Shown piece by piece: positions 34,629 to 61,712 of a stretch of DNA of 64,000 nt (position 1 is its first letter; the number at the start of each line of letters is the position of its first letter). Both the position numbers and the translations under genes were made by a program. Under the pieces are notes generated by a model, which made no database searches, was not told the origin of the DNA, and worked only from the letters and a program-made list of their open reading frames with translations. The stretch comes from Omnitrophica WOR_2 bacterium RIFOXYA2_FULL_38_17 (lineage in GTDB: Bacteria > Omnitrophota > Gorgyraeia > Zapsychrales > Zapsychraceae), in contig MHHG01000053.1 in NCBI GenBank assembly GCA_001805965.1, positions 1,512-65,511 of the forward strand. Direction: 5' to 3'.

Positions 34629-34748
34629 AACAATTCATTAACTATCTAATACTAATAAAAATCTTAACATGGAATAAGTTCATCAGCCACTTCTTTTCAA
34701 GAATTCTACGTTAAGCCGTCTGAAAATCCCAACTATAATTCATCGCAT

Positions 34749-39356: not shown

Positions 39357-39467
39357 AATTAAACTAATTAAGATTAATAATAATAGAAAATAAAATTTAT
39401 ATAAAAAGTATACAATATATTATTTTTTATTACCAATTAACGGAAAAAAGAGGAAAAAAAAGAGTTT

Positions 39468-39950: not shown

Positions 39951-39956
39951 TTTAAT

Positions 39957-41597
39957 TTATGATACAGCTTCAATATATAAGCCTTTAGGAATAGTAAAAT
40001 GAAACGCAGCACCTTTTCCTTCTTCTGAATCTATCCAAATAGTGCCACCATGAGAATCAACCACTGCTTTAACAATGCTCAAGCCGGCTCCGGAGCCAAC
40101 ATAATCTTTTGCACTATGCAGCCTTGCAAATATTTCAAAAACTTTCTCCTGATCTTCTTTTGCAATACCAATACCATTATCAGTTACTACAAATTCATAC
40201 GACTTTTCATGCTCAAAATGACCGACCGTGACAATTGGATGAATATCTTTGTTCTTTGAAGAGAATTTAATTGCATTGTTAATAAGGTTTAAAAATGCCT
40301 CTCCTATTTTTATCCTGTCGCAAATTATAGTAGGCAGATTTTCAGGAATAACCATTTCGACATTATATTGTTTAATATCAAATTCTAACCTCTCGCATAT
40401 ATTCACAACAACCTGATGAATATCAACTTTCTCATAAGGATTTTTGACCCTGGTTATTCTTGTCAAGGCAAGCAAATCTTCGATCAAATTATTCAATCTC
40501 GTAACTGACCTGCGAATACCTGAAATGCACTCCATCGCCTTATCATCTAATTTCCCCTTATAATGTTTTTCTAAAAATGCGCCATAACCTGATATTCCTG
40601 TGAGCGGGGCACGCAAGTCATGGCTTACCGTGTGGACAAACCCATCCAATTCTTTATTAACTTTCTGAAGGTCCTGCTTCTGACCTTCCGTCACTTTCAG
40701 ATTTTCTAAAAGCATAATCCTTTTTTCTTCTAGTTTATCGGTAAACTCTGTCAGCTTTTCACCCATAGTAACAAAAGCAGTAGAAACTTCGCCAATTTCG
40801 TCTTTTTGAATATTGTCTATTTCCACTTCAAACTTTCCTTTACCCACTTGCTGAGCAACATTTACAAGTTTCTTTAAAGGCCTGGCAATACTTCTTATAA
40901 GAGCAAAAGATATTATAGAACTGATCACTATGCTCAAAACAAAGCTTACCCATAAGACTTTCCTTGCAACCTTCTCTTCCTGATTAGCAATTTCCAAAGA
41001 CCTCTTTGAGAACTCCCTTATTTCCAACATCATTGATTCAAGCTTTAAAGAAAGTCTTTTTTCACTTCTTTTTATCTCGTCGATATCTTCAAATGACAAT
41101 TCATACTCAGTTTTTTCTATCATGCCAAATATTTTAAAGATAACCGCATCATAGCTAATAAGGGATTCTTCTATCTTTTTTATGATCAGCCTGGCATTCT
41201 CCAGTTCAACCTTCTTTTGTTCTGATAAAGTATTAGTGAATTCTTCTTCAATCATGTTCTTTGCATCAATAATATTAGCTGCTGCCTGCTCGCCAATTTT
41301 ATTAAATCCTTCTCGCAGTAGCCCAATATGTTCCAGCAAATACCTTTTGCGTATTTCCGTGACATTTTCAAATGCGACTTCTTCCGCGATCCTTAAAACC
41401 CTCTCGAATAAGATTACTTTTTTGTGCTGGTAATTATTTATTGAAGTAACAACTTCTGTTAAGGCCATGTCCCTTTTAACAACATTTCTCAGCTCAAAAC
41501 CTATCTTTGAAAGTTGACTCAAACCTATAATAGTGTTACATCCTAAAACTGTAAGAAGGAAGAGAATAAAGACTGAAATTTTATTGGATATTTTCAT
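39957..41597 (-). CDS. Sensor histidine kinase (TM-sensor-TM, HAMP, HisKA, HATPase_c)
   Basis: HDLRAPL H-box with N, G1 and G2 boxes. Confidence 0.85.
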   Translation of the reverse strand: MKISNKISVFILFLLTVLGCNTIIGLSQLSKIGFELRNVVKRDMALTEVVTSINNYQHKKVILFERVLRIAEEVAFENVTEIRKRYLLEHIGLLREGFNKIGEQAAANIIDAKNMIEEEFTNTLSEQKKVELENARLIIKKIEESLISYDAVIFKIFGMIEKTEYELSFEDIDEIKRSEKRLSLKLESMMLEIREFSKRSLEIANQEEKVARKVLWVSFVLSIVISSIISFALIRSIARPLKKLVNVAQQVGKGKFEVEIDNIQKDEIGEVSTAFVTMGEKLTEFTDKLEEKRIMLLENLKVTEGQKQDLQKVNKELDGFVHTVSHDLRAPLTGISGYGAFLEKHYKGKLDDKAMECISGIRRSVTRLNNLIEDLLALTRITRVKNPYEKVDIHQVVVNICERLEFDIKQYNVEMVIPENLPTIICDRIKIGEAFLNLINNAIKFSSKNKDIHPIVTVGHFEHEKSYEFVVTDNGIGIAKEDQEKVFEIFARLHSAKDYVGSGAGLSIVKAVVDSHGGTIWIDSEEGKGAAFHFTIPKGLYIEAVS

Positions 41598-43169: not shown

Positions 43170-45797
43170 ATGGAACCAGACAAAAAAACATTAAATGATA
43201 ATAGCGCAAAAGCTCGTTGCGTTTTAAATATTTCAAAAAAAAGCACATTCCTTAAGTATTTGCTTGTCTTTATACTTTCATCCTCCATAGGCATATATTT
43301 CCGCCTTTTTCCTTTAATAAACTACTCTCCTGGTGATTTTCGAGAAAAAGCTACTTTAATTGTTATTCATCAGCTTAGAGAAATTGTGATAAAAAATATC
43401 GAGGCCAATAATCCTGACCTTAGTCCTCAGGAGAAAGCTTTACTGATAAGAACACAATTTAACAGACTTTTAAATACAGAAAAACTGAAAGTGCGGAGTT
43501 CAATAAATTCAGTCACTAGGAATTTCGCCGAGCAATCTCTCGAGAAAAGAAATAGCCCTTATCTTTTAGCTTCAGATTCTTTTTATTATTACGGATTAAC
43601 AAAGAACATAGTAAAAACCGGGAAAATAGCCGACACTATTAAGGGAAGCAAATACTTAAATCCTCTTATGCTTGCACCAAACGGCCATTATGAGCCGTTA
43701 AACCTACATCCCTACATTGGCTTCTTTATCTATAAAATAATGCTGATCTTTAACCAAAGTACTGACCTGATGCATGCTGTTAGCTATACTCCGCTTGTTA
43801 TTGCAGCATTATCAGTGGTCCCATTCCTTGCAATTTGTTATTCTTTTGGAGTAAGCGCAATAGCTTCTTTTGTGGGAGCTGTCTTTTTCCTTCTCGCTCC
43901 GATTTATATTAAAAGAAGCACCTTCGGATGGTATGATAATGACCCCTACAATACCTTTTTCCCATTACTGATCTTATCAATAATTTTTTTGGGATTATCA
44001 AAAAAATCCCTAAAACAAAATTTGCTATATGGACTTTTAAGTGCCTTCTTGCTTATGCTTTATGCCTTTTTCTGGCAGGGATGGGTCCTAATCTTCTTTG
44101 TTATCTTTTCATCAGGCATATTAATAATTTTATATGACCATTTTATTTTGAAAGATAAGCTTGTGTCAAAAAATTCTTTTTCATATTTCGGTATTTTTTC
44201 AATTCTAAGCTTCTTTGCAGTGTCATTAGCTTTCGGTGCCGGTGAATTCTTTGTTCTATTTAAAGAAGGCTGGATAGCATTAAAGAATTTCTTAACACCC
44301 CAATTATCATTATGGCCAGACCTATACATGAGCGTATCTGAGCTTCACAATGCAACGCTTAGTTATATAGTTGAATACTCCGGGGGTAAATTCTTTATAG
44401 CTATAGCCTTATTGGGATTTATTGCTTCACTGATCACTATCCCAAGGCAAAAAAAGCCTGAAGACGTTCCAAAAATCATCATGATAACTGTCTTTCTATC
44501 GATATCCCTAATTATCGCTTCCGGAGCACAAAGATTTGTTATGCTTGTATTTGTCCCTCTTTCAATATTCTTTGCCATTGGAATTGAGAGGATTTACAGA
44601 TTTTTTTCTTTCATTATAAATTTAAAAATACCTGAATCAAGGAATTCAGCCAGCTTAAATCCTAAGAAATTAATTGCTAACATTTTATTGGCAATTGTTA
44701 TCCTAGTTACTGTTTTTATACCTATAAAATCTATTCACAATACAATTGAATCTCTGCTTAATCCTATATTTAATGAAACATGGGAAAGTGCTTTGCTCCA
44801 AATTAAGGAAAAAACACCCAAAGATAGCATTGTTACCACCTGGTGGCCACCTGGGCATTTTATAAAAGCTATTGCAGAAAGAAGTGTTACGTTTGATGGT
44901 GCTACAATAAATGTTCCCCAAGCATATTGGGTTTCCAACATATTCTTAAGCCAGGATGAAACTCAAGCTTTAGGTTTTATAAGAATGCTTAACAATAGTG
45001 GGAATAAAGCTGCTGATTTTCTAGTCCAAGAACGCGGCTTTGAACTATCAACGAGCATAGCACTTTTAAAACTTATTACCGCGTTACCTCCAATAAAAGC
45101 TGCAATCGCCCTATCAACTGTTTTTAATGATGCTGACTCCATTAACAGATTATTAGAACTAACTCATAAAACACCGCCTCCATCCTACTTACTGATATAC
45201 AATGAGTTTGTAGAAAATAATCTTCAGCTGAAATTCATTGGAAAATGGAATTTTACCGAGCTTGAGAAAATCAATAAGGACCCTGCCCTTTTAAAACAAG
45301 TCCCTGATAGGAATTCTGACCAGTATGTTCAATTCCTCTGGAAACTTGTTGGAGGCGCTTATAAATATAGCGGTATTCTTAATCAGCTTGACGCTAACCG
45401 AAATAGAGTGATCTTCGACGAAAATGTTATAATCGATTTAAAAACAAAAGAATGTATTGTAAATTCAAATACATACGGAAAAGGCACGCCTATAAGTGTC
45501 TTATATCTTGAGGATAATGAATTAAAAGAAGAACTGCAAAAAACCCCAACTCTCTCATATTCTGCACTACTAATAAAGGATCAAGATGCATATAAATGCA
45601 TCCTTCTTGATAGGCCTCTGGCAAGATCCCTTTTAGTTCACCTTTACTTCTTTGAAGGAAAAGGCCTAAGATATTTCAAGCCTTTCATAAAGGAATCTGA
45701 TCTGACAGTACGAACGAAGATAATGGTATACGAAGTTGACTGGAAACAATATTCAGAAGATACTCAAATGAAACTCCCTAATCTCCCGGGTTTATAA
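43170..45797 (+). CDS. STT3/AglB/PglB-type oligosaccharyltransferase homologue with a variant WWPPGHF motif
   Basis: 13 TM segments plus a periplasmic domain. EL1 DSFYYYG. EL5 SVSE motif (MSVSELH). WWPPGHFI where STT3/AglB/PglB-type enzymes carry WWDYGxx. Confidence 0.6.
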   Translation: MEPDKKTLNDNSAKARCVLNISKKSTFLKYLLVFILSSSIGIYFRLFPLINYSPGDFREKATLIVIHQLREIVIKNIEANNPDLSPQEKALLIRTQFNRLLNTEKLKVRSSINSVTRNFAEQSLEKRNSPYLLASDSFYYYGLTKNIVKTGKIADTIKGSKYLNPLMLAPNGHYEPLNLHPYIGFFIYKIMLIFNQSTDLMHAVSYTPLVIAALSVVPFLAICYSFGVSAIASFVGAVFFLLAPIYIKRSTFGWYDNDPYNTFFPLLILSIIFLGLSKKSLKQNLLYGLLSAFLLMLYAFFWQGWVLIFFVIFSSGILIILYDHFILKDKLVSKNSFSYFGIFSILSFFAVSLAFGAGEFFVLFKEGWIALKNFLTPQLSLWPDLYMSVSELHNATLSYIVEYSGGKFFIAIALLGFIASLITIPRQKKPEDVPKIIMITVFLSISLIIASGAQRFVMLVFVPLSIFFAIGIERIYRFFSFIINLKIPESRNSASLNPKKLIANILLAIVILVTVFIPIKSIHNTIESLLNPIFNETWESALLQIKEKTPKDSIVTTWWPPGHFIKAIAERSVTFDGATINVPQAYWVSNIFLSQDETQALGFIRMLNNSGNKAADFLVQERGFELSTSIALLKLITALPPIKAAIALSTVFNDADSINRLLELTHKTPPPSYLLIYNEFVENNLQLKFIGKWNFTELEKINKDPALLKQVPDRNSDQYVQFLWKLVGGAYKYSGILNQLDANRNRVIFDENVIIDLKTKECIVNSNTYGKGTPISVLYLEDNELKEELQKTPTLSYSALLIKDQDAYKCILLDRPLARSLLVHLYFFEGKGLRYFKPFIKESDLTVRTKIMVYEVDWKQYSEDTQMKLPNLPGL

Positions 45798-46840: not shown

Positions 46841-47419
46841 CTATTTATTAGCAGCAATTTCTTTTGATGATCTTGAACCGATTGAAACTTTCACTACCGA
46901 CATCGACACATTCACCGTATTCTCAACGCCTCTTTTGGGAGACATATTGAATTTTACTACCTTTAGCAGCTCTTCTGTAGAATTTATTTCGTGCATAAAC
47001 GTTAAAACATCTTCTAATGTTCCTACACAGTCTAAATTCGCATAATATTTATCAAAATCTTTCTCGTGTTTTACTTCTGAAGGGTTGCTTTTAACCAGAT
47101 TGACTTTTGTCTTTGTTGCAAGCCTTTCAACCACGCTTAAAAAATCAGCATTAACGATATCAGCATCTTTCTGGTCCTTGTTAATATAATTCTCATAAAC
47201 CTTTAACTCTCTTACAATCTTATCCTTATATGCCAAAAATCTGATATCTCTAATAACGCTTTGCTCTTGTATAGAAATCTCATTATCAATGGTATAAAGT
47301 TTGCTTAATACCGGGCCCAGAAATAACCTGTCAAAACATGCTAACAGGACAAATAAAACAGTTACATAAAATACTTTTTTCTCGTTCTCAGATAAATTGG
47401 AAATAAATTTCTGAATCAA
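46841..47419 (-). CDS. gspM: T2SS GspM / PilO-like bitopic protein
   Basis: Single N-proximal TM, periplasmic domain, operon position after gspL. Confidence 0.5.
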   Translation of the reverse strand: MIQKFISNLSENEKKVFYVTVLFVLLACFDRLFLGPVLSKLYTIDNEISIQEQSVIRDIRFLAYKDKIVRELKVYENYINKDQKDADIVNADFLSVVERLATKTKVNLVKSNPSEVKHEKDFDKYYANLDCVGTLEDVLTFMHEINSTEELLKVVKFNMSPKRGVENTVNVSMSVVKVSIGSRSSKEIAANK

Positions 47420-47421
47420 CT

Positions 47422-48909
47422 TTACTCCTCCGTAGTTTCCGCTTGAACCACATCATCGTCAGCAAACGATTTTAATTTTAAAGTTATCTCAAAAGCAGAC
47501 ACATCTTTTCCCCTGTCCTTCTTTGAGGTAGTTGACTTTATCTCTACGCTTTTGAAAAGAGGTGACTCTTTTAGCGTTGTGCCTAAATTAAAAACAAGCG
47601 AAGCAATATCAGAAACCCCTTGGATACTTACGCTTCCGTCTTCATCAAGAAATACATTAGTCAAATAAACACTGTCGGGGATATTATAATACAATTCCTT
47701 TATTGTTTCTAAGCTAACCATTCTTCCTGCTAAATATTTTTGAATAATCTTTGTTTGCTTAGCATCTTCCTCAAGCCTTACAACTTCCTCCCTATTAGCC
47801 TTGTACTTTGATTTCAGATTGTTCAAATATGTGCTCTTAAAATAAATACGCAACCCTAAAGTTAAAGCCACTAAAAATAGAACAATAAAACCTGCCATTG
47901 CCGCCCTCAAAAATTCTACCCCTTGTTCCTCCAATGATCTTTGCATAAGGACTTCCTCGGGCATAAGATCAACTTGCATATCCTTAACAATCGATACAGC
48001 AGAGACTATATCAAGGAATGAAGTGTTTGAATAGTTATTGGCTATTTTCTTTAATGCTCCGCTTGCTACTTTAACATTATCAACATAAGGTATAAACTCA
48101 ACTACCCAATTAAGCTTTTCTTTTAAGGCCGTTTGAAGGGCTTTTGTATTTTCATCATCGGTTGTAATCAAATACTGTACCGGAGCAGGCTCAATATCTT
48201 CATTAATGTAAAGGTCCAAAGTCATTTTAATCTCATCAACAAGCTTGTTAATTGCATCTATACCCTCGCTAGCAAGCTGATTTTTACCGACAGGAATGCT
48301 CCTTGAAGAAATAGAGATTCCGCGGAAAGCTATAACAAAATTTGTTGAATTTTCATCAACATCAATGATTCCCTTTGGAGTTGCTTCTGCCTTCCATCCA
48401 AGCGCATCAGAATATAATCCGGCTATACCTTCTGGGGCAAAAAGCACTTTTTCGATCTTAATTCCAGCTTTTTCAAAAACCTCCAACTGGCTTTTAAGAA
48501 CATTTTTGTTGGCAATAACAAGCAGTATCTTTGAATAATTGCTCTTATATACTCCTATGTTCACAAAACCAACCTGGATTTCATCCCTTGAAAACGGCGT
48601 ATGCCTTCCTGCCTGCAAGCCTACAATAGACTTGATCTCTTCAGGATTAGTCGAAGGAACTTCAATATTCTTTGTTGTTACCATGCTAGGAGGGACAACA
48701 CAAACTGCAGTGTATTTCTTTGCATTAAAACTACTTAATGCAGATTGAACAGTTTTAGGAAGATCTGCTTCAGACATTCCCTTAATATCTTTTGAAAAAA
48801 CATTAAGAACTTTACATGCTTTTAACGAACCTTTGACCTGCGCTATTTTCAACAGGTCATCACCCAAAGAAATACAGATATACTCATTGATCTTATTAGA
48901 CATAAACAA
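47422..48909 (-). CDS. gspL: T2SS GspL-like protein (actin-like cytoplasmic domain, TM, periplasmic domain; PilM-PilN-like)
   Basis: N-terminal YICISLGDDLLKIAQV actin-fold start. TM at about residue 330. Periplasmic C-terminal domain. Confidence 0.55.
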   Translation of the reverse strand: MFMSNKINEYICISLGDDLLKIAQVKGSLKACKVLNVFSKDIKGMSEADLPKTVQSALSSFNAKKYTAVCVVPPSMVTTKNIEVPSTNPEEIKSIVGLQAGRHTPFSRDEIQVGFVNIGVYKSNYSKILLVIANKNVLKSQLEVFEKAGIKIEKVLFAPEGIAGLYSDALGWKAEATPKGIIDVDENSTNFVIAFRGISISSRSIPVGKNQLASEGIDAINKLVDEIKMTLDLYINEDIEPAPVQYLITTDDENTKALQTALKEKLNWVVEFIPYVDNVKVASGALKKIANNYSNTSFLDIVSAVSIVKDMQVDLMPEEVLMQRSLEEQGVEFLRAAMAGFIVLFLVALTLGLRIYFKSTYLNNLKSKYKANREEVVRLEEDAKQTKIIQKYLAGRMVSLETIKELYYNIPDSVYLTNVFLDEDGSVSIQGVSDIASLVFNLGTTLKESPLFKSVEIKSTTSKKDRGKDVSAFEITLKLKSFADDDVVQAETTEE

Positions 48910-48985
48910 TCCTTAACATTTGGATATTATATACGATTTAATTTTATTATATACTAATATAACTAACTGTAACAACAGAAAATCA

Positions 48986-50041
48986 TTATTTTTCTCTCCA
49001 ATATTCTATACGATTTTCTAATGCATTATACACGCAGACGGCTTCAAGAACCTCTTCTTTATTACGTATTCTAGCCCTACTTCCTATCAAATAAAAGGAA
49101 GAATTTGTTTTTATTCGTTGGGCTAAATTCAGAAGATCTATCTCTCTTATTTCAGATATTTCTAGTTTTGTAAAGGCAAGCATGTCAACGGCCATGTCAA
49201 AAGTTTTATGAAATATATGGTCATCAACGCTAAAATCTTTGTCATCAAATCCTCTTCGCACCATTAAAAATTTATCAATAACACTTTGGCTCAATCCAAT
49301 AGCATAGAGAACCTGATATGAAGCTGTATTTATATTTACCAAACCATCTCCGTAAACAGTAATGAATGGATACAATCTTTCATATACATCCTCGGTAAAT
49401 CCTTCGACAAGCAACAATTCATCTATAAGCTCAAACGGCTTGCTTTTGATCTCATAGGGAAATTCCAGGTTTGAGTAATATTCATTACTATAGAAACCCT
49501 CGGCATGCGATTGTCCGAATTCCCGCCAATCAATAATATTATTAGCCAACCACGCGGCATCTTCTTGATCAAGCCCCAGAACACTCATTATCAAACGCAC
49601 GATAACATCCTGAGGCGCCACATTAATATTTATTTTACTTTCTGCGTCGACAACTCCATACTTGATTTCAACTGCAGATGAACTGCTGCCATAATAGGGA
49701 TATGACACGTCAAAATACCCGTCTCCGACCACTATTCCCTTGAATTTATCCGGATTATTATGCCTATAATATTTCCCGTATGACGTATAAAGATCACCGT
49801 TCCTGCTGATATCCATCCTTATTGAAGCAATGGCTTTTTTTATTCCAGCATCAGCAATATAATGAAGCTTGCTTCTTGTTTCCAATCTCAAGAGCATTGT
49901 AGCTTTTTGCTGGATCTTCATTCCAATCTGAACAGCAAATACGCTCAAAAAAACAACAGTCCATAAAGCAAGGATCAGAACAGAGCCCGCTCTTTCACGA
50001 CTAATCAAATTTTTAAAATTCATATACAAAGCTCTCGCCAA
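48986..50041 (-). CDS. gspK: T2SS minor pseudopilin GspK-like
   Basis: RGSVLILALWTVVFLSV N-terminus, 351 aa. Confidence 0.6.
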   Translation of the reverse strand: MARALYMNFKNLISRERAGSVLILALWTVVFLSVFAVQIGMKIQQKATMLLRLETRSKLHYIADAGIKKAIASIRMDISRNGDLYTSYGKYYRHNNPDKFKGIVVGDGYFDVSYPYYGSSSSAVEIKYGVVDAESKININVAPQDVIVRLIMSVLGLDQEDAAWLANNIIDWREFGQSHAEGFYSNEYYSNLEFPYEIKSKPFELIDELLLVEGFTEDVYERLYPFITVYGDGLVNINTASYQVLYAIGLSQSVIDKFLMVRRGFDDKDFSVDDHIFHKTFDMAVDMLAFTKLEISEIREIDLLNLAQRIKTNSSFYLIGSRARIRNKEEVLEAVCVYNALENRIEYWREK

Positions 50042-50665
50042 TTATCCGCCTATAGGTATATCAATGAATTTTCTCATTGACCTTTCGCCACGGCTATCTT
50101 TAAACACAACCAATACTTCAATAGCTGAAGGAATATAATCTAAAATTTCATTCTTTGTGATTTCACCTTCAGGGGTTAGAACAAAATAGGTGAATTTCAG
50201 CCTTTCAACAGAGCCAACTATTTTTGATTCTCTAGAATATTGCTCACTTACTGCCTGGCTGTAATTAGCCTGCCTTCTATAAATACTGTCTGATATTGGA
50301 TCAAAATAATATTCTACTTTTCCTAACTGATCAACATATGAACCCTCCGGATGCCCTGATCCCTTATCTGCTTTTGTATAAACTATCGCAGGAAAACTAA
50401 ACCTAAAGACATCACCCTGTGGCTTTATCCTCGAATAAGAATAAACATTTCTCAGATCTTTACTTATTTTATCAAAAAACATTGCTATATCTTCCTCAAC
50501 AACCAGGCGGTTAGACTCCTGCCAAACCCTGATACCGCTAGATAAACAACTGTAAATAGCAACGCTAATTACTGCGATAAGGGATGTTACGATAAGTATC
50601 TCAATCAGCGTCATCGCTGATTTATTTTCCAATCTTTTAATGGACATTTTAAATTGAGTTCTCAT
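50042..50665 (-). CDS. gspJ: Minor pseudopilin (GspJ-like) with a prepilin N-terminal domain
   Basis: ...SAMTLIEILIVTSLIAV... Confidence 0.6.
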   Translation of the reverse strand: MRTQFKMSIKRLENKSAMTLIEILIVTSLIAVISVAIYSCLSSGIRVWQESNRLVVEEDIAMFFDKISKDLRNVYSYSRIKPQGDVFRFSFPAIVYTKADKGSGHPEGSYVDQLGKVEYYFDPISDSIYRRQANYSQAVSEQYSRESKIVGSVERLKFTYFVLTPEGEITKNEILDYIPSAIEVLVVFKDSRGERSMRKFIDIPIGG

Positions 50666-50697
50666 TTTCTTTATTAGTTGGGAAAAATCTAAAGCGG

Positions 50698-51165
50698 CTA
50701 TTTAAAATACTCGAAATCTGAAATATATGCTGAACGCGATAAGATCATTTCCTTCCCGCCAGAATCCCAAAGAAGAGAAAGGTCCAGTTCAAAAACATCT
50801 GCAAAATCTTCAACTTCTGAAATATTCATTCTTTGCCTAAACTCTATCTCTTTCGCTCCGACATTAAGCTTTTCTTTTCTGTTAAGTTCGAACGGTAACG
50901 TTTCATATACCCTTAGCATTCTTTCAATCGCAGTTATCCTATTATCAAGCAGCGTAGTAGCATAAAGCCTATTCGTTAAGTAATTCATGCGGTCTAAGGA
51001 AACTATAAATCCTTTAAAGATAATAACTATACCCAAAGACAGCACTGCAAGGGCAACCATAACCTCAACAAAAGTAAACCCTGAATCTGAAAACAAAAGC
51101 CGTCCTCTTCTCTTAGACAACTTCTCTTTCCTGTTCAGGGTATTATTTTTTCTCTTATGAAACAC
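50698..51165 (-). CDS. Minor pseudopilin (GspH/GspI-like)
   Basis: ...SGFTFVEVMVALAVLSLG... Confidence 0.6.
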   Translation of the reverse strand: MFHKRKNNTLNRKEKLSKRRGRLLFSDSGFTFVEVMVALAVLSLGIVIIFKGFIVSLDRMNYLTNRLYATTLLDNRITAIERMLRVYETLPFELNRKEKLNVGAKEIEFRQRMNISEVEDFADVFELDLSLLWDSGGKEMILSRSAYISDFEYFK

Positions 51166-51215
51166 TTATGTATTTTTGATTTTGCAAAAACTAATATTTA
51201 CAAGCTGGTAAGATT

Positions 51216-51659
51216 CTATTCTTCCCAATTATTTATATCATCACCAGAATTGCTTTTATCTCCGCCTAAAGAACTTAAATCATAGTCCGGCCTCTTCTTT
51301 CCCGGAGAGGTATAAACATAAGGCGAGCCCCACGGGTCAATTGGGTCTTTTTCAATATATGGGCCATTCCAATTGCGAGCCTCTGGAGTTGTGCTAGGCT
51401 TCTTTTTTAAAGCGGCCAATCCTTGTTCTGTAGAAGGGAAAGTCCCGTTATCAAGTTCATAGAGCTTTAATGCCGTAGCTAATTGAGAGTTGATATCTGA
51501 TTTTGCAACAGAAACTTTTGCCTGCTCACTTCTTCCCACAAGCCTGGGGACGACCATAGCAGCTAAAGCTGCAATAATAATAACCACCAGCATAATTTCA
51601 ATTAAAGTAAATGCCTTATTTCCTTTAAATAAAATTCTCATATCTCCTCCAAAGTTCAA
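51216..51659 (-). CDS. gspG: Major pseudopilin GspG (probable start at 51641)
   Basis: AFTLIEIMLVVIIIAALAAMVVPRL...AKVSVAKSDI...DPWGSPYVYTSPG...YDLSSLGGD...DINNW is a near-textbook GspG. Confidence 0.9.
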   Translation of the reverse strand: MNFGGDMRILFKGNKAFTLIEIMLVVIIIAALAAMVVPRLVGRSEQAKVSVAKSDINSQLATALKLYELDNGTFPSTEQGLAALKKKPSTTPEARNWNGPYIEKDPIDPWGSPYVYTSPGKKRPDYDLSSLGGDKSNSGDDINNWEE

Positions 51660-51705
51660 TAACTAATTAATCCATGTAATATCTATATATTATCATACAA
51701 CAGAT

Positions 51706-52557
51706 TTACTGTTTTTTCATATAACTTAACCATTTTTTTTCAAGGTCCTCAACACTATTTATCTTTAACACATAAGCATCTTTTAATGCGCTTTCAAAAT
51801 TCTTACCATCGCGCAAATTCCTGCATAAGCTTCCAAAACGTTGATTCCCATATTCGTCGATCAAGAACTTTACTATTGTATAACTTTCCAAATAAAAGAC
51901 AGTTACTTTTAAAGAATCCTCTTCATCCCTAATATCAACATTAAACAGCACATCAAAAGGGACATATTCATTCGCTTCGATCAATCCCTTCATTGCATGA
52001 CGAGCCCGTGCTGCTTTTTCAGCTTCCTGTAACTGCGCAACACCTTCTTCAAACCACATAGGTATTACTTTCTCAAAGCCAATAAAATCCCATAGAATTA
52101 AATGGCTGATCTCATGGGGAAGGGTCTCATCGACAAATGACCCTTCCTGAACAAATGAAATAATACTTCTGGTGTTTGATAATTGCTTATGCCCGACGAC
52201 ACCTCCCCTTGACCATTCAGGCTGGCCAGTCGCCTCGACAAACGCATCTCTGTCTGAATATATAGTAATAACCGCTCGATTATCCCAGGTCCAAAAATTT
52301 CTATACCGCGCATAACCTATATCTTGCGCTACCTTATCATAATAGATCTCAGACTTATTAAGGATATCTCTTGCCCACGATGCTGTTTCGCTAGATGGAT
52401 ATTTTATAATAAAATGCTTTCCTCTCTCCTCTCTCCATCCGGATGAATTCGCATCTTTAACAACAAGTACATTTTGATGTAAAAGAACAAAGAGAAACAT
52501 GTATAATATTTTCAGTCTTTTTTTCATCTCATCTTTAGTAAAACAATGCAATATCAT
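51706..52557 (-). CDS. Secreted HExxH zinc-metallopeptidase-like protein embedded in the T2SS operon
   Basis: Signal peptide and HEISHLILWDF motif. 4-nt overlap with gspF. Confidence 0.5.
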   Translation of the reverse strand: MILHCFTKDEMKKRLKILYMFLFVLLHQNVLVVKDANSSGWREERGKHFIIKYPSSETASWARDILNKSEIYYDKVAQDIGYARYRNFWTWDNRAVITIYSDRDAFVEATGQPEWSRGGVVGHKQLSNTRSIISFVQEGSFVDETLPHEISHLILWDFIGFEKVIPMWFEEGVAQLQEAEKAARARHAMKGLIEANEYVPFDVLFNVDIRDEEDSLKVTVFYLESYTIVKFLIDEYGNQRFGSLCRNLRDGKNFESALKDAYVLKINSVEDLEKKWLSYMKKQ

Positions 52558-53759
52558 GCAAATACATCAACCTGGAATATAGGCAATAACATGGCAAAAA
52601 CTATAAAGCCTACAATAACTCCAACAAGAAGGATCATCACGGGCTCAAGGAGCGTTGTAGTCATTTTTATCTTCTCGTCAATCTCCTGCTCATAAGTTTC
52701 AGCGATCTCAGCTAAAACATCATTAAGGCTTCCTGACTCTTCTCCAATTGATATCAAGTGCCCCATCATAGCAGGTATTTCGCTAGCAGCTTTTAACGAT
52801 TCTCCAAATGAACCTCCGGTTATAATATCCTGCTCACATTTTTTTAACTGGAGTACAAGCAAATCATTTTTAATTATTGGAGCTGCTATCCCTAAAGCCC
52901 TCACTAAAGGGATACCGCTTCTCATCAATAGTAAAAGGGTCGTCGAAAATCTTGTTAATTCACTTTTCAAAACCAGCTCGCCAAAAAAAGGCAGCCTCAG
53001 CATTGCCTTGCTTGATGCAAATCTACCAATCTTTGTTTTTCCCCACTGATGGAAAACCATAGCTGTAATTAATGACCCTATTATGACCCACGCCCACCAT
53101 TTTGACAAAAATGCGCTGACATTTATCAAGATAACAGTAACTAACGGTAACGCATCGCCCATTGATTCAAACAAGGATGACATCTTCGGCAAGACAAAAG
53201 TCAGAATGAAACAAATAGTCGCAACTCCCACAAATGCCATGAAAACAGGATACGCCATGGCCATTCTGATCTTAGACGATATCTCTTCTTGTCTCTTAAG
53301 ATGCTTTGAGACATTTGATAACATTTCCTGCAGATTGCCGCTTTCCTCACCAGCCCTTACCATGGTTACATATAAATACGGGAATATATTCTTGTATTCT
53401 GATATACATTCAGAAAAAGATTTTCCGTTCCTAACTCCCTGAACAATGTAATAAATAACTTTTCTGAAATACTGGTTAGCTGTCTGATCTTCAATAATCG
53501 TTAATGCCTTAAGAAGGGAAACACCCGCACGAAGAAGATTTACAAGCTGTTTACTAAACACATATAGCTCTTTCGTCCCGACTTTTCTTGCCAGGACGAT
53601 TTTCTTCCCTGGTTTGCCAACTTCTTCTTCCGTCACAGATACAGGGAGCAAACCTAGCTGATTGATAATATTTACTGCATCATCCTGGCTATTGGCATTT
53701 ATCTTGCCATTGACAGTTTCAGCATTTCTTTTTTTAGCTATATAGATGTATGTTTTCAT
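52554..53759 (-). CDS. gspF: T2SS inner-membrane platform protein GspF
   Basis: Two T2SF repeats, 3 TM segments, 401 aa. Confidence 0.85.
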   Translation of the reverse strand: MKTYIYIAKKRNAETVNGKINANSQDDAVNIINQLGLLPVSVTEEEVGKPGKKIVLARKVGTKELYVFSKQLVNLLRAGVSLLKALTIIEDQTANQYFRKVIYYIVQGVRNGKSFSECISEYKNIFPYLYVTMVRAGEESGNLQEMLSNVSKHLKRQEEISSKIRMAMAYPVFMAFVGVATICFILTFVLPKMSSLFESMGDALPLVTVILINVSAFLSKWWAWVIIGSLITAMVFHQWGKTKIGRFASSKAMLRLPFFGELVLKSELTRFSTTLLLLMRSGIPLVRALGIAAPIIKNDLLVLQLKKCEQDIITGGSFGESLKAASEIPAMMGHLISIGEESGSLNDVLAEIAETYEQEIDEKIKMTTTLLEPVMILLVGVIVGFIVFAMLLPIFQVDVFA

Positions 53760-53841: not shown

Positions 53842-56100
53842 CTACTCTGCTGCTGAATTCTCGATAAACTTCTTAATAGATGCACGGTCAGCACTTGATA
53901 GATCAAGATAATAATTTACCATTGTATAAATATTTTCCATGCTATCTTCTTCTACCCTGCAAACCTTTGCTAAACACTCGATAGCTTTTTGGCTATGATC
54001 GATATATATCTTTAACTCTATGATCGACCCTATTTGAATTCTTTCTTTTGAAATAAATCTTAATCCCCCGGCGCTAATATCTTCAGTAACTGTTGTATAT
54101 TCCACTCCGCTTGGTACCAAAAAGTTCGGATCAGTTGCATCGATCTTTAGCGGGCAATATCTGATTTCAACATGTTCGAACACCCTGGGAAAAACCCTGG
54201 CATCATATAAATTCTTCACTTCCCACGTGCTCTGCCTTTTTATTTTATCACTGCGTGTAACGCGCCTTACTGCCCCTAATCCTTCCGTTTTTGCATATGA
54301 CATCTGCTCAGTTTCAAAGGCCCTCGCGCCTAAATGCTTTCTGTCGCGCTCCTTTCTTATTGCCATAAGATCCTTTTCCTCATCCTTTACAGTAACATTC
54401 ATAATTTCGCTGGGAGTTGTTTGACCTTCAAGGACTACTTTCCAGCCATTCTGCCTAAGAGATACCATGCCTTCCTGCATAGCTATCCTCTTTATATAAT
54501 CTGCTCTTGGATGGTCTAACACTGCTGACCTTATAGCATCATTAACCCTTAGTATCTCATAAATAGCCATTCTCCCGAAATATCCTGTGTGATTACAGTA
54601 ATCGCATCCCTCGCCCTTAAAGATCTTTATATCTTTTTGCTGCTCTTCTGTGAGGAATAAAGATGTCACAATTTCTTTCTTAATTCCCTCAGGAACATCA
54701 ACAACTTCTTTTTTACATTTCGGACAATTAACCCGCACCAGCCTTTGTGCAACAAAAGCTTCAACGCTTGAAGATACTAAATATGGCTCGATCCCCATAT
54801 CTATTAGCCTTGTTATGCCACTTGCCGAATCATTGGTATGTAAAGTTGAAAAGACCATATGCCCCGTCAGAGCTGTTCTTATTGCAATTTCTGCAGTCTC
54901 CACATCCCTTACCTCTCCGACCATAATAATATCCGGGTCATGCCTTAAGATACTCCTTAAACCATTAGAAAAATTGAAATCAACTTTTGAATTGACCTGG
55001 ACCTGGGTTATTCCTTCCATTTCATACTCAACAGGGTCTTCAATAGTGATTATCTTTCTCTCCGGAGAATTTATTTCATTTAAGCATGCATAAAGAGTAG
55101 TGGTCTTGCCGCTTCCCGTAGGGCCGGTAAGAAAGACTATCCCATATGGATTCTTTATAATTTCCCTGAATTTCTCGACGGTATCCTGGTTGAACCCCAG
55201 CTTCTCAAGCGAAAAAAGCATGACCTTTGTAGGAAGTATTCTAATAACCATACTCTCGCCCATAGGCGTTGGCATTGTAGAGATCCTTAAATCAAGCTTT
55301 TGCTCCCTAGTTTTAACAACCGTGCTCCCATCTTGAGGAAGACGCTTTTCGGTAATACTTAAATTAGCAAGTATCTTTATCCTGGATAATATCTGCGTAA
55401 GAAAATGCTTTAGCTTATCTGAAACATTTGCATCTACTAGAACCCCATCAATTCTATATCTGAACCTAACTTTATCCCTGTATGGCTCAATATGAATATC
55501 CGTTGCGCGCTTCTTAAAGGCCTCAAGTATTATTTGGTTTACAAGATTTGATACCGTCGGGTCCTGCGTCTCCCTTTCAATATCCTCGATCCATTGAACA
55601 TCAGTTGCAGATACAGACGCCTTTCTGACAGGATCTTTTGAAATGATCTTATCTATCGTGTCAGATGTAAAGCCATAATACTTTTTTAATGCCTCATTAA
55701 TTTCACTTTCAAGTGCAAGACAAAAATTAACATTAACGCCCAAATTCATCCTGATCTCATCATTAAGTATTACATCGATAGGTTTTGCAGAGGCAACCGT
55801 TATAACATTATCCTCAAACTTAACAGGCATAATTTTATAATACCAGGCAAATTTAACAGGAACCTTGTCAATAACACCTTGCTCTACATGAATATTACCT
55901 AGTTCAACAGATTCTATATTTAGCCCTCTAGAAAGTGAAACCAGGATCTGCCTTTCTGTAACGATATGATTGGAAAGAAGGTATTCTTTTAAAGACAACC
56001 CTTCATCTTTAGCTATTCTAGAATGATCTTTGATTTCTTCATTGGAAAGGACATTATTACTTGCTAAATTTTCCTGCAGTATTTTATCAAATTGCTTCAT
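53842..56100 (-). CDS. gspE: T2SS/T4P assembly ATPase GspE with a C-terminal PilZ domain
   Basis: N1E domain, Walker A GPTGSGKTT, tetra-Cys region CPKCKK...CDYC. C-terminal RVFPR (RxxxR) ... EDISAGGLRF (DxSxxG) PilZ signature. Confidence 0.85.
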   Translation of the reverse strand: MKQFDKILQENLASNNVLSNEEIKDHSRIAKDEGLSLKEYLLSNHIVTERQILVSLSRGLNIESVELGNIHVEQGVIDKVPVKFAWYYKIMPVKFEDNVITVASAKPIDVILNDEIRMNLGVNVNFCLALESEINEALKKYYGFTSDTIDKIISKDPVRKASVSATDVQWIEDIERETQDPTVSNLVNQIILEAFKKRATDIHIEPYRDKVRFRYRIDGVLVDANVSDKLKHFLTQILSRIKILANLSITEKRLPQDGSTVVKTREQKLDLRISTMPTPMGESMVIRILPTKVMLFSLEKLGFNQDTVEKFREIIKNPYGIVFLTGPTGSGKTTTLYACLNEINSPERKIITIEDPVEYEMEGITQVQVNSKVDFNFSNGLRSILRHDPDIIMVGEVRDVETAEIAIRTALTGHMVFSTLHTNDSASGITRLIDMGIEPYLVSSSVEAFVAQRLVRVNCPKCKKEVVDVPEGIKKEIVTSLFLTEEQQKDIKIFKGEGCDYCNHTGYFGRMAIYEILRVNDAIRSAVLDHPRADYIKRIAMQEGMVSLRQNGWKVVLEGQTTPSEIMNVTVKDEEKDLMAIRKERDRKHLGARAFETEQMSYAKTEGLGAVRRVTRSDKIKRQSTWEVKNLYDARVFPRVFEHVEIRYCPLKIDATDPNFLVPSGVEYTTVTEDISAGGLRFISKERIQIGSIIELKIYIDHSQKAIECLAKVCRVEEDSMENIYTMVNYYLDLSSADRASIKKFIENSAAE

Positions 56101-56102
56101 GT

Positions 56103-57674
<1,572 letters not shown>

Positions 57675-58526
57675 CTATTTCATAGTCATCATTCTTGCAG
57701 AAAATGTTTCACGAAGACTTTTATCAATATCACCTTTTTTTGCCTTAATATATTTCATGCCGACTTTTGTTCTTTCCTTCTTCATTTTGTCGACACTATC
57801 CTCAAGGAAGCTTGATTGTGCAGAAGCTGAAGCAATGATCGTATCAATAAAGATCTCATATAATCTTGTAGATACCCATAGATTTGTCAGGATCCCGATC
57901 ACCTGCATTGGATCAGACTCTTCAATAACCTCATCAAAAATATCCACAAATTCATGCTGCTTTTTTAACAAGTCAACACATGGCAACAGCTGAACTACTT
58001 TCCTTAATTGTGTGTCAAATGATTTTGGCCATGCGTAAACGACTAAAACCTTGCCAAGCCTGTCATTCATGATCTCGTCAACAAGATAATCCTTGACCAT
58101 AATAACCGTCTCATAAATACCTATAGCCTCCATATTATTAAAGGCTCTAATGTTCTGATCAATCTCTCTAAAACGAGCTTCCGCCTTGTTTCCAACTGCA
58201 ATTAATTTTACATCTTCATATTTTTCTTTTTCTTCAATAGCTGTTCTAAGTATCTTGTTATTAAATTCACCTAAAAAACTACCTTCTATGGTTACGGCTA
58301 ATATTCCGACTTTCTTGTTATCATTTTCGATCATAGGATGCTTTTTCTCAGTTAAACTTATCATCCTAAAGAACTCAACAAAAGTCTGTCCAAACCTTCT
58401 GAATTTATTTTTCTCGTTCATCAAAGTAAAGAGCTTGTTGTCAGCAATATCCTTCAACGTTTGAACAAGTTCAACCATTTCCTTTACATCTAACAATTCC
58501 CCTTTTACTTTACTTGCTTTACCCAT
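57675..58526 (-). CDS. atpG: F-type ATPase gamma subunit (divergent)
   Basis: 283 aa, with N- and C-terminal helices resembling gamma. Position between the b-delta fusion and beta. Confidence 0.65.
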   Translation of the reverse strand: MGKASKVKGELLDVKEMVELVQTLKDIADNKLFTLMNEKNKFRRFGQTFVEFFRMISLTEKKHPMIENDNKKVGILAVTIEGSFLGEFNNKILRTAIEEKEKYEDVKLIAVGNKAEARFREIDQNIRAFNNMEAIGIYETVIMVKDYLVDEIMNDRLGKVLVVYAWPKSFDTQLRKVVQLLPCVDLLKKQHEFVDIFDEVIEESDPMQVIGILTNLWVSTRLYEIFIDTIIASASAQSSFLEDSVDKMKKERTKVGMKYIKAKKGDIDKSLRETFSARMMTMK

Positions 58527-58563
58527 TTACAATTACCTTATATTCTTTAACACAATATCATAG

Positions 58564-59304
58564 TTAAAAATCAGAGGCAGCTTGTTTTTGTAGGGCTAAA
58601 CCCTTCTCTAGTATTGACTTCTTTATGCTTCCATCTAAAGCCATACTACCAAATTTTAAAAGAACTCCTCCGCCAATTTTTTCATCTGTGACAAAATTAA
58701 TATCTATCTTTCTGTTCATTTTCTTTAAAATGACCGCAGTTAACTTTTCTTTTACTTTAGCCTCAATTTGAGAAACTGCAACAACATCAACACTTTTTAT
58801 TTTATCATCGATCCTGCTCATATCCGTCTCTTCAAGATTAGATAAGAACTCATTTATTAAAACTTCGCTTAAAGCCCCTTTTGCCTTTTCACTCAATATT
58901 TTATTAAGTATTTCCATACTAAAATTTATCAGCTTAACATCAAACTCAGCCTGAATTTCTTGACGTATCTTATCTTTTGCATTCTGAGCTTTAGTGATAA
59001 TTTCCTCACCTTCTTCTCTTGCTTTTGAAACGGTCTTGTCCCTTTCAGCTTTCATTTCTTCTTCTGCCTCTTGGCGCAATTTATCGGTCAACTCCTTAAC
59101 CTCGATTTTCCTTTTCTCAAGCTGTTCATCCGCGTCTTTGATTTTCCTGCTTAATTCCGCCTGTTTTGCATTAGCCTTACTGATCTCATCATTAAGACTG
59201 TCAATCGCTTTCTGCTTACTCATATCAAAGGATCTTTTAACAAAAAACAATATGGCCCCTAAAAGCAACCCTACTAAAATAAAAAATTTTAAAATCAATT
59301 CCAT
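58564..59304 (-). CDS. atpF: F-type ATPase b subunit fused to the C-terminal domain of delta (OSCP)
   Basis: N-terminal TM, a 150-aa charged helix, and a C-terminus ...VTDEKIGGGVLLKFGSMALDGSIKKSILEKGL that matches the delta C-terminal consensus. Confidence 0.65.
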   Translation of the reverse strand: MELILKFFILVGLLLGAILFFVKRSFDMSKQKAIDSLNDEISKANAKQAELSRKIKDADEQLEKRKIEVKELTDKLRQEAEEEMKAERDKTVSKAREEGEEIITKAQNAKDKIRQEIQAEFDVKLINFSMEILNKILSEKAKGALSEVLINEFLSNLEETDMSRIDDKIKSVDVVAVSQIEAKVKEKLTAVILKKMNRKIDINFVTDEKIGGGVLLKFGSMALDGSIKKSILEKGLALQKQAASDF

Positions 59305-59374
59305 ATTAATTAACTCCTTTTATAAAGCATTTTTAATACCAGTCAGAAAAAAGTCTTATATAAAGTACTATTTT

Positions 59375-59608
59375 TTAATGATGAAAAACATTATAAAACA
59401 TGATCAAAAGAACAAAAGTTATGATTTCTGTAACGATCAACTTCCATACAATACTCATTTGTATCGCAGGCGTTTTTGTTGGATATCTGCCCAGGTCACC
59501 TATCATCTTATTTCCCAGCAGGGCAACTATTATACAAGGAACAATGATTATAACTGCATAAACACATGCAAATACAAATGCCTCTCTCCATAAATCAAAT
59601 TCAACCAT
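59375..59608 (-). CDS. Divergent second c-type (proteolipid-like) hairpin subunit
   Basis: 2 TM segments, a loop GRYP (compare RQP), and the conserved carboxylate E exactly 20 residues after the loop Arg, as in c subunits. Lacks a Gly-rich helix 1. Confidence 0.45.
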   Translation of the reverse strand: MVEFDLWREAFVFACVYAVIIIVPCIIVALLGNKMIGDLGRYPTKTPAIQMSIVWKLIVTEIITFVLLIMFYNVFHH

Positions 59609-59630
59609 TATTAATAATCCTTAAAATAAT

Positions 59631-59849
59631 CTATTTCCCAAAAAGCTGAAATATGACCAAAATAGCAACTATAGATATACCCTCAACAAAAATAAGCATA
59701 ACCACCATACCCATAAATATTTTAGAAGCCGCCGAAGGATTTCTTGCTAATGCCTTTACAACTGCCCTGCCAAGGACAGCAATAACAATAGCCGGCCCTA
59801 AAACAGCAACTAACATGATACCGACTATAATGAATGTCTCTGCTATCAT
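59631..59849 (-). CDS. atpE: F-type ATPase c subunit (H+-type: E with no S/T partner)
   Basis: 72-aa hairpin with ARNP loop and E 20 residues after the loop Arg. Confidence 0.8.
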   Translation of the reverse strand: MIAETFIIVGIMLVAVLGPAIVIAVLGRAVVKALARNPSAASKIFMGMVVMLIFVEGISIVAILVIFQLFGK

Positions 59850-59871
59850 AAATTTATCCTATTTGTAATAT

Positions 59872-60159
59872 TTAAAATTCATCTTCCTGATCAACGATCT
59901 TCTTTTTTATCTGCTCTTCAACCATAATTGTGCACTCATTCGCAAAAAACCTGACAACTCCTCCATTTATTGGGATCCTTTCGTTCATATCAATAACAAC
60001 ATCACCTTTAACTAAAACACCTAACAAAGGATAATGATATGCTAAAAGCTCATACTCTCCTGTATCACCTGTGAGAAATACTGACTCAGCCTCCTTTTCA
60101 TATATCAATCTATATGGGCTTATAATAATGCATTTAAATTTTTGCGAAAATTGTACCAT
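59872..60159 (-). CDS. atpC: F-type ATPase epsilon subunit, beta-sandwich domain only (no C-terminal helical hairpin)
   Basis: ...FLTGDTGEYELLAYHYPLLGVLVKGDVVI...IPINGGVVRF.ANECTIMVE matches the epsilon N-terminal domain, 95 aa. Confidence 0.75.
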   Translation of the reverse strand: MVQFSQKFKCIIISPYRLIYEKEAESVFLTGDTGEYELLAYHYPLLGVLVKGDVVIDMNERIPINGGVVRFFANECTIMVEEQIKKKIVDQEDEF

Positions 60160-60164
60160 ATTAA

Positions 60165-61712
60165 TTACTCATTCTTGGATGTTGCTTCTTCCAGGATATC
60201 CCTGCCTATATTTGACAGGATATCGGTATCCTCTTCATCTTCAATTTCTGGCCTTATCCCAGATGTCTTATTGAGATATGCCTCTATAATTTCATTAAAG
60301 GCATTTTCTATTTCCTCATCCATTTTTTTCCTTGCACGTAATTTTGTGATAATCTCAGGATTAAGGTCTTTTGCAAATTCTAAAATATTAAGCTGAAACT
60401 GATTAACAGCTTCTAAAGTTGGCAATTTATGCAAATACTTTTTATTAAATGCATATAATATGAGCACTAAAGATTCCATCGCCACCGGGCTGTCTTTATC
60501 CTGCCTTAATACACATCTCAATATCTCTCCGCTCCTAAGCTGCTCTAAAACCTCGTCTGATTGAGAACCTGACCTTAACTTAGACAGTCTTTCTAACTCC
60601 CTAAACTGCAAAAATTCAAGTCGCAAAGGCCCGCTCAACTGTTTAATAATAGGCCACTGTACCTTAGTACCGACACGTGAAACAGAAAGCCCCAGATCCA
60701 GCGCAGGTTTTTGACCTTCACCAAAGAGGGCAGCATCAAGCATTATCTGCCCATCGGTCATAGAAACAAGATTAGACGGAACAAAAGCAGTCAAGTCTCC
60801 CTCAAGAATCTCAACAATAGGCAGGAATGTCATCGAGCCTTGACCATGATCTTCATCCAAGTAACATGCGCGTTCGATCATCTTGGAATGCAGATAAAAA
60901 ATATCGCCAGGATAAGAATCTCTACCTGGTGCCCTTCCTAATAATAGAGAGATCTCCCTATAACACCAGGCATGCTTGGTAAAATCATCAAATCCAATAA
61001 ACACATGTTTGCCTCTATGCATAAAATATTCACCGATCGAACAAGCAACATAAGGCGACAAATACTGCTGCCCTGGAGGGCTTGATGAAGGCGCCGCAAC
61101 GATAATAGTATAATCAAATGCATCATAATCCTGAAAAAGCTGAACAACTCTTGCAAGCTGCGACCTTGCTTTGCCTGTTGCAACATAAATACATATGACC
61201 CCGGTATCCTTCTGATTCAAGATCGTATCAGTAATAAATGTTGTCTTTCCAGTCATCTTGTTACCAAGGATCAACTGTCTTTGCCCCAAGCCAATAGGTA
61301 TCATTGAATCAAGGACCTTGGTGCCGGTTTCAAGCGTAAGACATAATGGAAGTCTTTCAAGAATAGCAGGAGCAGCCGGAAAAATTGGATAGTATGCATC
61401 TTCCTTTATCGGGCCTAATCCGTCAAACGGCTCACATAATGAAGTAACAATACGTCCTATAAAATTCTTTCCAACAGGCACCCTAAAAGGCTCTAGCGAT
61501 GCCCTTGCTTCATCACCCGTTCTGATCTTAGATGCTTCTTTTAATATCAAAACGTTTGCTTCCTGCTCATTAAAGCCTAAGATCATACCAATGGAACCAT
61601 AACCAAAATTGATCAGCTGCCCATTAATACAATGATTTAGCCCGACGACATTGATAATACAGCCACGGATACTTTTTACATAACCAACTTCTGTATATTG
61701 TAATTCTGCCAC
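60165..61712 (-). CDS. atpA: F-type ATPase alpha subunit
   Basis: GNKMTGKTTFITDTILNQK P-loop and ...YREISLLLGRAPGRDSYPGDIFYLHSKMIERA... Confidence 0.9.
   Translation of the reverse strand: MAELQYTEVGYVKSIRGCIINVVGLNHCINGQLINFGYGSIGMILGFNEQEANVLILKEASKIRTGDEARASLEPFRVPVGKNFIGRIVTSLCEPFDGLGPIKEDAYYPIFPAAPAILERLPLCLTLETGTKVLDSMIPIGLGQRQLILGNKMTGKTTFITDTILNQKDTGVICIYVATGKARSQLARVVQLFQDYDAFDYTIIVAAPSSSPPGQQYLSPYVACSIGEYFMHRGKHVFIGFDDFTKHAWCYREISLLLGRAPGRDSYPGDIFYLHSKMIERACYLDEDHGQGSMTFLPIVEILEGDLTAFVPSNLVSMTDGQIMLDAALFGEGQKPALDLGLSVSRVGTKVQWPIIKQLSGPLRLEFLQFRELERLSKLRSGSQSDEVLEQLRSGEILRCVLRQDKDSPVAMESLVLILYAFNKKYLHKLPTLEAVNQFQLNILEFAKDLNPEIITKLRARKKMDEEIENAFNEIIEAYLNKTSGIRPEIEDEEDTDILSNIGRDILEEATSKNE

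Follow-up and report, generated by a model that had tools for sequence, protein, structure and literature searches.

Three routes are known by which cyclic di-GMP (c-di-GMP) reaches the motors of type IV pili (T4P) or of a type II secretion system (T2SS): an MshEN domain at the N-terminus, proteins of the degenerate EAL/GGDEF kind (FimX, for example), which act with or without a non-binding PilZ adaptor, and transcription. Here we analyse a gene of the Omnitrophica WOR_2 bacterium RIFOXYA2_FULL_38_17 that encodes an ATPase of the secretion-ATPase superfamily continued at its C-terminus by a PilZ domain. The gene lies on the minus strand of a 64,000-nucleotide stretch of contig MHHG01000053.1, the whole of which was analysed and is referred to below as the window. 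A PilZ domain fused in cis to the motor ATPase would represent a fourth, structurally distinct route.

The MshE-type ATPases (V. cholerae MshE, P. aeruginosa PA14_29490 and T. thermophilus PilF GSPII) resemble the Omnitrophota protein in belonging to the same superfamily, in having an MshEN-fold N-terminus and in carrying the receptor on the motor itself. They differ in the receptor, which is the N-terminal four-helix MshEN_N domain in MshE and would be the C-terminal PilZ barrel here, the tandem 24-residue MshEN motif being absent from 121 of 121 family sequences. The binding chemistry would differ accordingly, with Arg and Asp/Ser side chains expected for PilZ and a hydrophobic, Leu-based mode described for MshEN (PMC5013675). 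The PilB-PilZ-FimX system of Xanthomonas citri couples c-di-GMP to pilus extension and is similar in its PilZ fold and in a PilB N-terminus unable to bind c-di-GMP, as is predicted here; however, its PilZ is a separate protein that has lost RxxxR and DxSxxG, with FimX as the real receptor (PMC8389850), whereas the PilZ of the window is fused, keeps both motifs and would need no recognisable third protein. In the cellulose synthase BcsA, too, a membrane-associated export machine has a canonical PilZ domain on the C-terminal side of its catalytic domain and is regulated by it in cis, but that catalytic domain is a glycosyltransferase (GT) rather than a hexameric secretion ATPase, and a short hinge lets PilZ pack directly against it where the Omnitrophota protein has a low-confidence linker of 40-60 aa. 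YcgR and MotI (DgrA), the best structural and profile matches to the PilZ domain, control a motility motor by c-di-GMP, but as stand-alone two-domain receptors acting in trans on the flagellar stator or rotor, in contrast to a receptor fused to the motor ATPase of another machine.

The locus type itself has been published. Seymour et al. 2023 (PMC10066038) described 'symbiotic' type 2/3 F-ATPase genes beside type IVa pilus (T4aP) genes in Omnitrophota, and that paper classes the locus type as T4aP and contains no mention of PilZ, c-di-GMP or GGDEF; the window holds a locus of this type, and the receptor fused to its pilus ATPase adds to that description. Full-text literature searches, covering work on PilZ diversity (10.1101/814665, 10.1101/2020.02.11.943704), on MshEN and on Omnitrophota genomics, returned no description of a T2SSE/PilB-PilZ fusion in cis, and the fusion is not described in a 2024 review on PilB regulation (PMC11656802). 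It is apparently both conserved and undescribed, with the qualification that its two parts and the regulatory principle are already known and that the architecture is recorded in precomputed public Pfam annotation. The fusion would serve as a natural 'Rosetta-stone' for a direct functional link between PilZ and PilB.

Domain layout of the ATPase and identity of its PilZ domain

The gene is a single uninterrupted open reading frame (ORF) encoding 752 aa, along which the following features were placed (AF2, AlphaFold2; pLDDT, predicted local distance difference test).

53842-56100 (-): MshEN-T2SSE-PilZ ATPase gene (pilB-PilZ), from the ORF call and Pfam matches to T2SSE, MshEN and PilZ
55921-56100 (-): aa 1-60, ND0 or MshEN_N-like four-helix region with a degenerate c-di-GMP motif, from alignment to the N-termini of Geobacter PilB and MshE; four helices predicted
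55669-55920 (-): aa 61-144, MshEN_C or ND1 domain (Pfam PF05157, 50.4 bits)
54400-55569 (-): aa 178-567, N2 domain and ATPase core (Pfam PF00437, T2SSE, 426 bits)
55102-55125 (-): aa 326-333, Walker A GPTGSGKT, from the translation; invariant in the family alignment
54595-54726 (-): aa 459-502, tetra-Cys zinc site CPKC...CDYC (C459, C462, C499, C502); all four Cys invariant
54211-54387 (-): aa 572-630, flexible K/R/E-rich linker, from low family identity and low pLDDT
53848-54210 (-): aa 631-751, PilZ domain, seven predicted strands (one a short hairpin insertion) and a C-terminal helix, from Pfam PF07238, AF2 and Foldseek
54184-54198 (-): aa 635-639, RxxxR motif R635-V-F-P-R639 (RVFPR), from the translation and family alignment
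54064-54081 (-): D/NxSxxG motif D674-I-S-A-G-G679, continuing as LRF to aa 682, from the translation and family alignment
53956-53958 (-): invariant R715 in the conserved strand CLAKVCRVEED, from the family alignment

An earlier note on this DNA had named RVFPR, DISAGG(LRF), the tetra-Cys site and the length of 752 aa, all of which the translation recovers where that note placed them, and the range 53842-54400 that it singled out is exactly the portion beyond the Pfam T2SSE match (aa 568-752). The C-terminal PilZ domain it proposed was borne out by a check that had been set beforehand: Pfam PilZ (PF07238) matches aa 661-747 with 46.6 bits (E = 4.7e-12), about twice the gathering score of 22.5, and ten further family members score 32.7-49.8 bits against the same profile. 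Both motifs are present, but their spacing is wider than the "about 30 residues" first given, with 35 residues from R639 to D674 and 39 from R635 to D674, because an insertion of about 10 aa lengthens the first β-hairpin. The same insertion explains why the Pfam match in the window protein opens only at profile position 16; in another family member, P0186, the match begins at profile position 3 and covers the RxxxR region.

For aa 618-752, AF2 run on an alignment of 45 family sequences gave a model with a mean pLDDT of 87.9, in which a disordered N-terminal stretch precedes six long β-strands, a short additional strand from the insertion and a C-terminal helix (residues 119-134 in model numbering). 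RxxxR lies in the loop ahead of the first long strand and DxSxxG forms the turn between strands 51-59 and 62-67 (model numbering), so that in the model both motifs, including the two Arg residues of the first and the D, S and G of the second, occupy the canonical PilZ positions expected of them. In a Foldseek search of the PDB with this model, ranks 1-43 are all PilZ domains, with target-normalised TM-scores of up to 0.8, among them MotI/DgrA, Alg44, YcgR, PP4397, BcsA (4P00, 9FNN), MrkH, MapZ, VCA0042 and PlzA. Rank 1 is 5VX6, from the YcgR/MotI (DgrA) group, and most of the 43 are of c-di-GMP-binding types, several of them solved with the ligand (e.g. Alg44, YcgR, PP4397, BcsA, MrkH and MapZ). 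The family profile also matches the PilZ domain of MotI/YpfA (E = 2.6e-6), and in this match DISAGG falls on the NISAGG of MotI. By sequence, MotI was reached with the family profile only, as a single-sequence phmmer search of the tail against the PDB gave just chance matches to TnsA/TnsB; the 129-aa PilZ tail retrieved only five fragments in a word-indexed homologue search, which was uninformative. Taken with the motifs, the model supports a canonical-looking PilZ domain of the c-di-GMP-receptor type, for which ligand binding itself is predicted.

Outside the classical PilZ motifs, the strand CLAKVCR (aa 709-715; 53956-53976, minus strand) is also conserved, with R715 invariant and C709 and C714 present in at least 90% of sequences. 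R715 might provide an extra contact to the ligand, comparable to R95 of Alg44.

The N-terminus matches the N-terminal domains of PilB, PilF, XpsE and MshE in the PDB (5HTL for MshE, E = 1e-4). The earlier note had set the PilZ domain apart from control through an N-terminal MshEN domain; the protein does have an MshEN-fold N-terminus, which that contrast had overlooked, but the c-di-GMP motif is missing from it and the idea of an alternative route is supported. A relaxed regular expression of the published 24-residue motif (PMC5013675), which recovers the motif in Geobacter PilB, matched 0 of 121 family sequences. HMMER aligns the second motif of Geobacter PilB, RLG..LI..G.......L...L..Q, with S36-L-K38 ... 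H45 ... I52 ... L56 ... G59 of the query, such that S36, K38, H45 and G59 replace the R, G, G and Q of the motif and the helical hydrophobic pattern is kept. By these alignments the MshEN-fold domain appears degenerate as a c-di-GMP site and, since the motif is absent throughout the 121 sequences, the PilZ domain is the only recognisable site for c-di-GMP.

With respect to the ATPase itself, the name T2SS GspE in the earlier note was right as to the secretion-ATPase superfamily and too specific as to GspE, the protein being a PilB-like ATPase of a T4aP/T2SS-like system. Membership of the T2SSE family is supported by the Pfam score given above and by the invariant Walker A motif and zinc-site cysteines. 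The best sequence matches in the PDB are to Geobacter PilB (433 bits, vs 359 bits for GspE), which places the core nearer to PilB than to GspE as far as sequence scores can tell. The protein falls below the cut-offs of both NCBIfam equivalogs, with 565.9 bits vs 630.25 for GspE (TIGR02533) and 554.3 bits vs 675.65 for PilB (TIGR02538). No secretin (GspD/PilQ) or PilT retraction ATPase was found by Pfam among the 51 scanned ORFs of at least 120 aa in the window, the scan comprising all long ORFs except the 137-aa (6587-7000) and 145-aa (15674-16111) ORFs and seven antisense within longer ones.

Conservation and loss of the fusion

A homologue search over 5.8 billion proteins was used to collect the 120 best homologues (54-94% identity), which stem from NCBI, JGI, ENA and Logan assemblies; all members with a named source are from Candidatus Omnitrophota/Omnitrophica. 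The PF05157 + PF00437 + PF07238 architecture is present in 117 of the 120, and the fusion homologues are 713-760 aa long, except for one N-terminally short sequence of 650 aa. The query and these homologues (121 sequences) were aligned with MAFFT, and motif residues were counted over the sequences having the PilZ region. R635 and R639 are found in 119 of 119; at position 674, 103 sequences have D and 15 have N, and 117 retain S676 and 119 retain G679. Of the 118 sequences whose PilZ domain is complete, at least 116 keep D/N674, S676 and G679. Averaged by region, identity to the query is 41% in ND0 (aa 1-60), 49% in ND1 (aa 61-150), 74% in the ATPase core and 50% in the PilZ region, and it drops to 14% in the linker, whose length varies from 23 to 60 aa across the family. 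These identities indicate that the PilZ domain is under purifying selection comparable to that on the N-terminal domains, with the linker behaving as a freely evolving tether. A full-length AF2 model, which was read out as pLDDT and secondary structure only, is confident for the ATPase and the PilZ domain and has pLDDT below 50 at aa 591-628.

Two further searches recovered the same architecture. Among the GTDB species representatives, a pattern scan derived from an 8-sequence alignment found 12 loci with the fusion, all in Omnitrophota, and the matches from other phyla are stand-alone or two-domain PilZ proteins of 120-313 aa; the family-specific peptide patterns are biased to close relatives, so the missing fusions outside Omnitrophota are weak evidence, and independent fusions elsewhere are possible. 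HMMER with the PilZ profile against 1.84 billion representatives (a 50%-identity library) gave 6086 matches at E <= 1e-3, of which 21 reach E <= 1e-30. Full-length proteins (about 730-765 aa) among the best 150 matches listed number five, all of them further MshEN-T2SSE-PilZ proteins, and the same 150 contain four shorter T2SSE-PilZ sequences that lack the N-terminus, one of them recorded as partial. Both phylum-named proteins among these fusion representatives are from Omnitrophota. One of the stronger matches to the Omnitrophota PilZ profile is of another kind, a 939-aa protein from a Deltaproteobacteria metagenome-assembled genome (P0206) in which Hsp70 is joined to three PilZ domains; Myxococcus is known to have PilZ-DnaK fusions (PMC10313047).

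Gene order was examined in 17 loci (the window, six fetched loci, L001-L004 and L032-L033, and ten GTDB loci). The F-type ATPase β-subunit gene is followed by pilB and then gspF in 17 of 17, the PilB protein carrying the PilZ fusion in 16 of them and lacking PilZ in L001.

Proposed regulation in cis and its alternatives

We put the probability at about 0.65 that the gene product is the assembly (extension) ATPase of a T4aP/T2SS-like filament machine joined to its own c-di-GMP receptor and regulated by it in cis, a reading built on the architecture, fold and conservation of the fusion, the degeneracy of its MshEN domain and the synteny of the locus. As c-di-GMP rises, the barrel would grip the ligand between its RxxxR loop and its D/NxSxxG turn. 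The RxxxR loop is predicted to be the junction between linker and barrel, and the ligand would order this junction and shift the barrel relative to the motor, in the manner of YcgR, PP4397 and BcsA. The barrel may dock on the ring of the ATPase or else at the N-terminus on ND0/ND1, the domain in contact with the PilM-like platform; in either case its shift would alter the activity of the hexamer or its docking to the PilM/PilC platform, and hence filament assembly. A precedent is provided by the PilZ protein that contacts PilB's N-terminal domain and relays c-di-GMP status (PMC8389850). As to the sign, our guess, by analogy with MshE and FimX-PilB, is that assembly would be activated at high c-di-GMP.

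Several points weigh against regulation in cis by c-di-GMP. Binding of c-di-GMP and regulation of the motor are both predictions. The distance from RxxxR to DxSxxG is about 10 residues above the usual. Searches by Pfam and regular expression found no GGDEF, EAL or HD-GYP gene in the 64-kb window or in the fetched Omnitrophota loci, and among all 33 fetched loci they were positive only in one locus from Polyangia. A preprint on giant genes in Omnitrophota has, however, reported that many of the encoded giant proteins contain GGDEF domains and that small pilZ genes lie directly downstream (10.1101/2023.11.21.568195), and c-di-GMP signalling therefore plausibly exists in the phylum; it may also be present in the source genome of the window.

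Close orthologues without PilZ also count against an obligatory role for the domain. Two of them, P0100 and P0106, lack both the linker and the PilZ domain and are 580-599 aa long with 68-69% identity over the core. The locus of P0100 (599 aa, 68% identity; L001 6001-7800), the one of the two that was read, has the same ATPase-pilB-gspF synteny; this conserved setting implies that PilZ can be lost and is dispensable in some lineages. As P0100 and P0106 are nearer to the query in core identity than most PilZ-bearing members, a recent loss of the domain is implied. Two other explanations for the shorter proteins were rejected: a split-gene arrangement, as no separate pilZ gene adjoins P0100 and gspF follows directly, and a functional swap to MshEN, as the MshEN motif has not been regained.

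The alternative that survives best, though we regard it as unlikely, retains c-di-GMP binding and makes PilZ a ligand-dependent adaptor that recruits or positions a partner at the motor rather than gating the ATPase. Candidate partners are the adjacent F1-like 'symbiotic' ATPase, the PilM-PilN platform and a marker of the pole or contact site. A long, flexible linker of variable length would suit the reaching of a partner, pilB and the F-type ATPase β gene show tight linkage in each of the 17 loci, and many PilZ proteins are adaptors, including two among the fold matches (MapZ with CheR1, YcgR with the flagellar motor). Against this, the candidate partner is only putative, and a covalent fusion most simply implies regulation in cis. 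The present data do not separate adaptor action from gating in cis.

Attachment to host or prey cells is a proposed function of the Omnitrophota pilus locus, and we know of no cultured, genetically tractable member of the phylum; with the fusion, c-di-GMP control of attachment becomes testable in vitro on one soluble protein. A wider reading, which we consider a long shot, would make PilZ the signal input of a composite attachment/motility machine of ultra-small, host-dependent Omnitrophota, composed of a T4aP-like pilus and a Mycoplasma-gliding-type F1-like ATPase, with c-di-GMP produced by GGDEF domains in giant surface proteins on contact with prey or host switching the pilus motor. If true, this would constitute a new c-di-GMP circuit leading from contact sensing to predatory attachment.

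PilZ might instead be a ligand-independent protein-protein module, comparable to the type II PilZ proteins of Xanthomonas and Pseudomonas that bind PilB's N-terminal domain but not c-di-GMP. Non-binding PilZ proteins are common (10.1101/2020.02.11.943704), one is a dedicated PilB cofactor (PMC8389850), and the tetrameric Xanthomonas PilZ is among the fold matches, where it appears only at the weaker ranks 35-41. We judge such a module to be decidedly improbable because the binding motifs are invariant: non-binding PilZ proteins lack RxxxR and DxSxxG (10.1101/814665), whereas here both are invariant or nearly so over 118 diverged sequences, and the best fold matches are ligand-binding PilZ domains. 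That the fusion arose as an assembly, frameshift or gene-calling artefact, for instance by the joining of a separate pilZ gene to pilB, can be dismissed, as the reading frame is continuous and the same layout recurs in 117 of 120 homologues, 12 GTDB representatives and five further library representatives, leaving only the generic risk of metagenome-derived sequence.

The pilus locus and its surroundings

The gene lies between the rest of the filament cluster and an F-type ATPase operon, which stops 2 nt ahead of the pilB-PilZ start codon.

56103-61712 (-): atypical F-type ATPase operon, in the order α, ε-like, c, 77-aa transmembrane (TM) protein, b/δ, γ and β, from Pfam and synteny
52554-53759 (-): GspF/PilC platform protein, immediately downstream of pilB-PilZ (Pfam T2SSF); syntenic in all loci reaching that far
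46841-52557 (-): rest of the filament cluster, with Peptidase_MA_2, a GspG-type major pseudopilin, two minor pseudopilins, a GspK-like protein, a PilM-PilN fusion and a 192-aa protein, from Pfam

The order of the filament cluster is the same in L001-L004 and L032-L033, and a TPR protein follows beyond the 192-aa protein in the window. The Peptidase_MA_2 gene (51706-52557, minus strand), which encodes a zinc metallopeptidase-like protein, separates gspF from the gene for the major pseudopilin; L001-L004 have it, and the more divergent L032 and L033 do not. The PilM-PilN protein (47422-48909, minus strand) is a GspL-like fusion of 495 aa, with PilM_2 at the N-terminus and PilN at the C-terminus, and is kept in all related loci. 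In the F-type ATPase of the window, the β subunit has a V/A-type C-terminal domain and b/δ is a fusion.

Convergent to the end of the pilus cluster, an 875-aa STT3-family oligosaccharyltransferase is encoded at 43170-45797 on the plus strand, and it occupies the same position in L002-L004 and L032-L033. This conserved position hints that glycosylation of pilins or surface proteins is tied to the machine. About 5 kb past the distal (TPR) end of the pilus locus lies a signalling cluster (34185-41597, minus strand) comprising a protein of 1535 aa whose sole Pfam matches are two HATPase_c domains, a stand-alone receiver protein and a HAMP-HisKA-HATPase_c sensor kinase. Across positions 1-64000, nearly all long ORFs have the minus orientation and every 2-kb bin has a negative GC skew, which suggests a location of the entire window on one replichore with a strong gene-strand bias.

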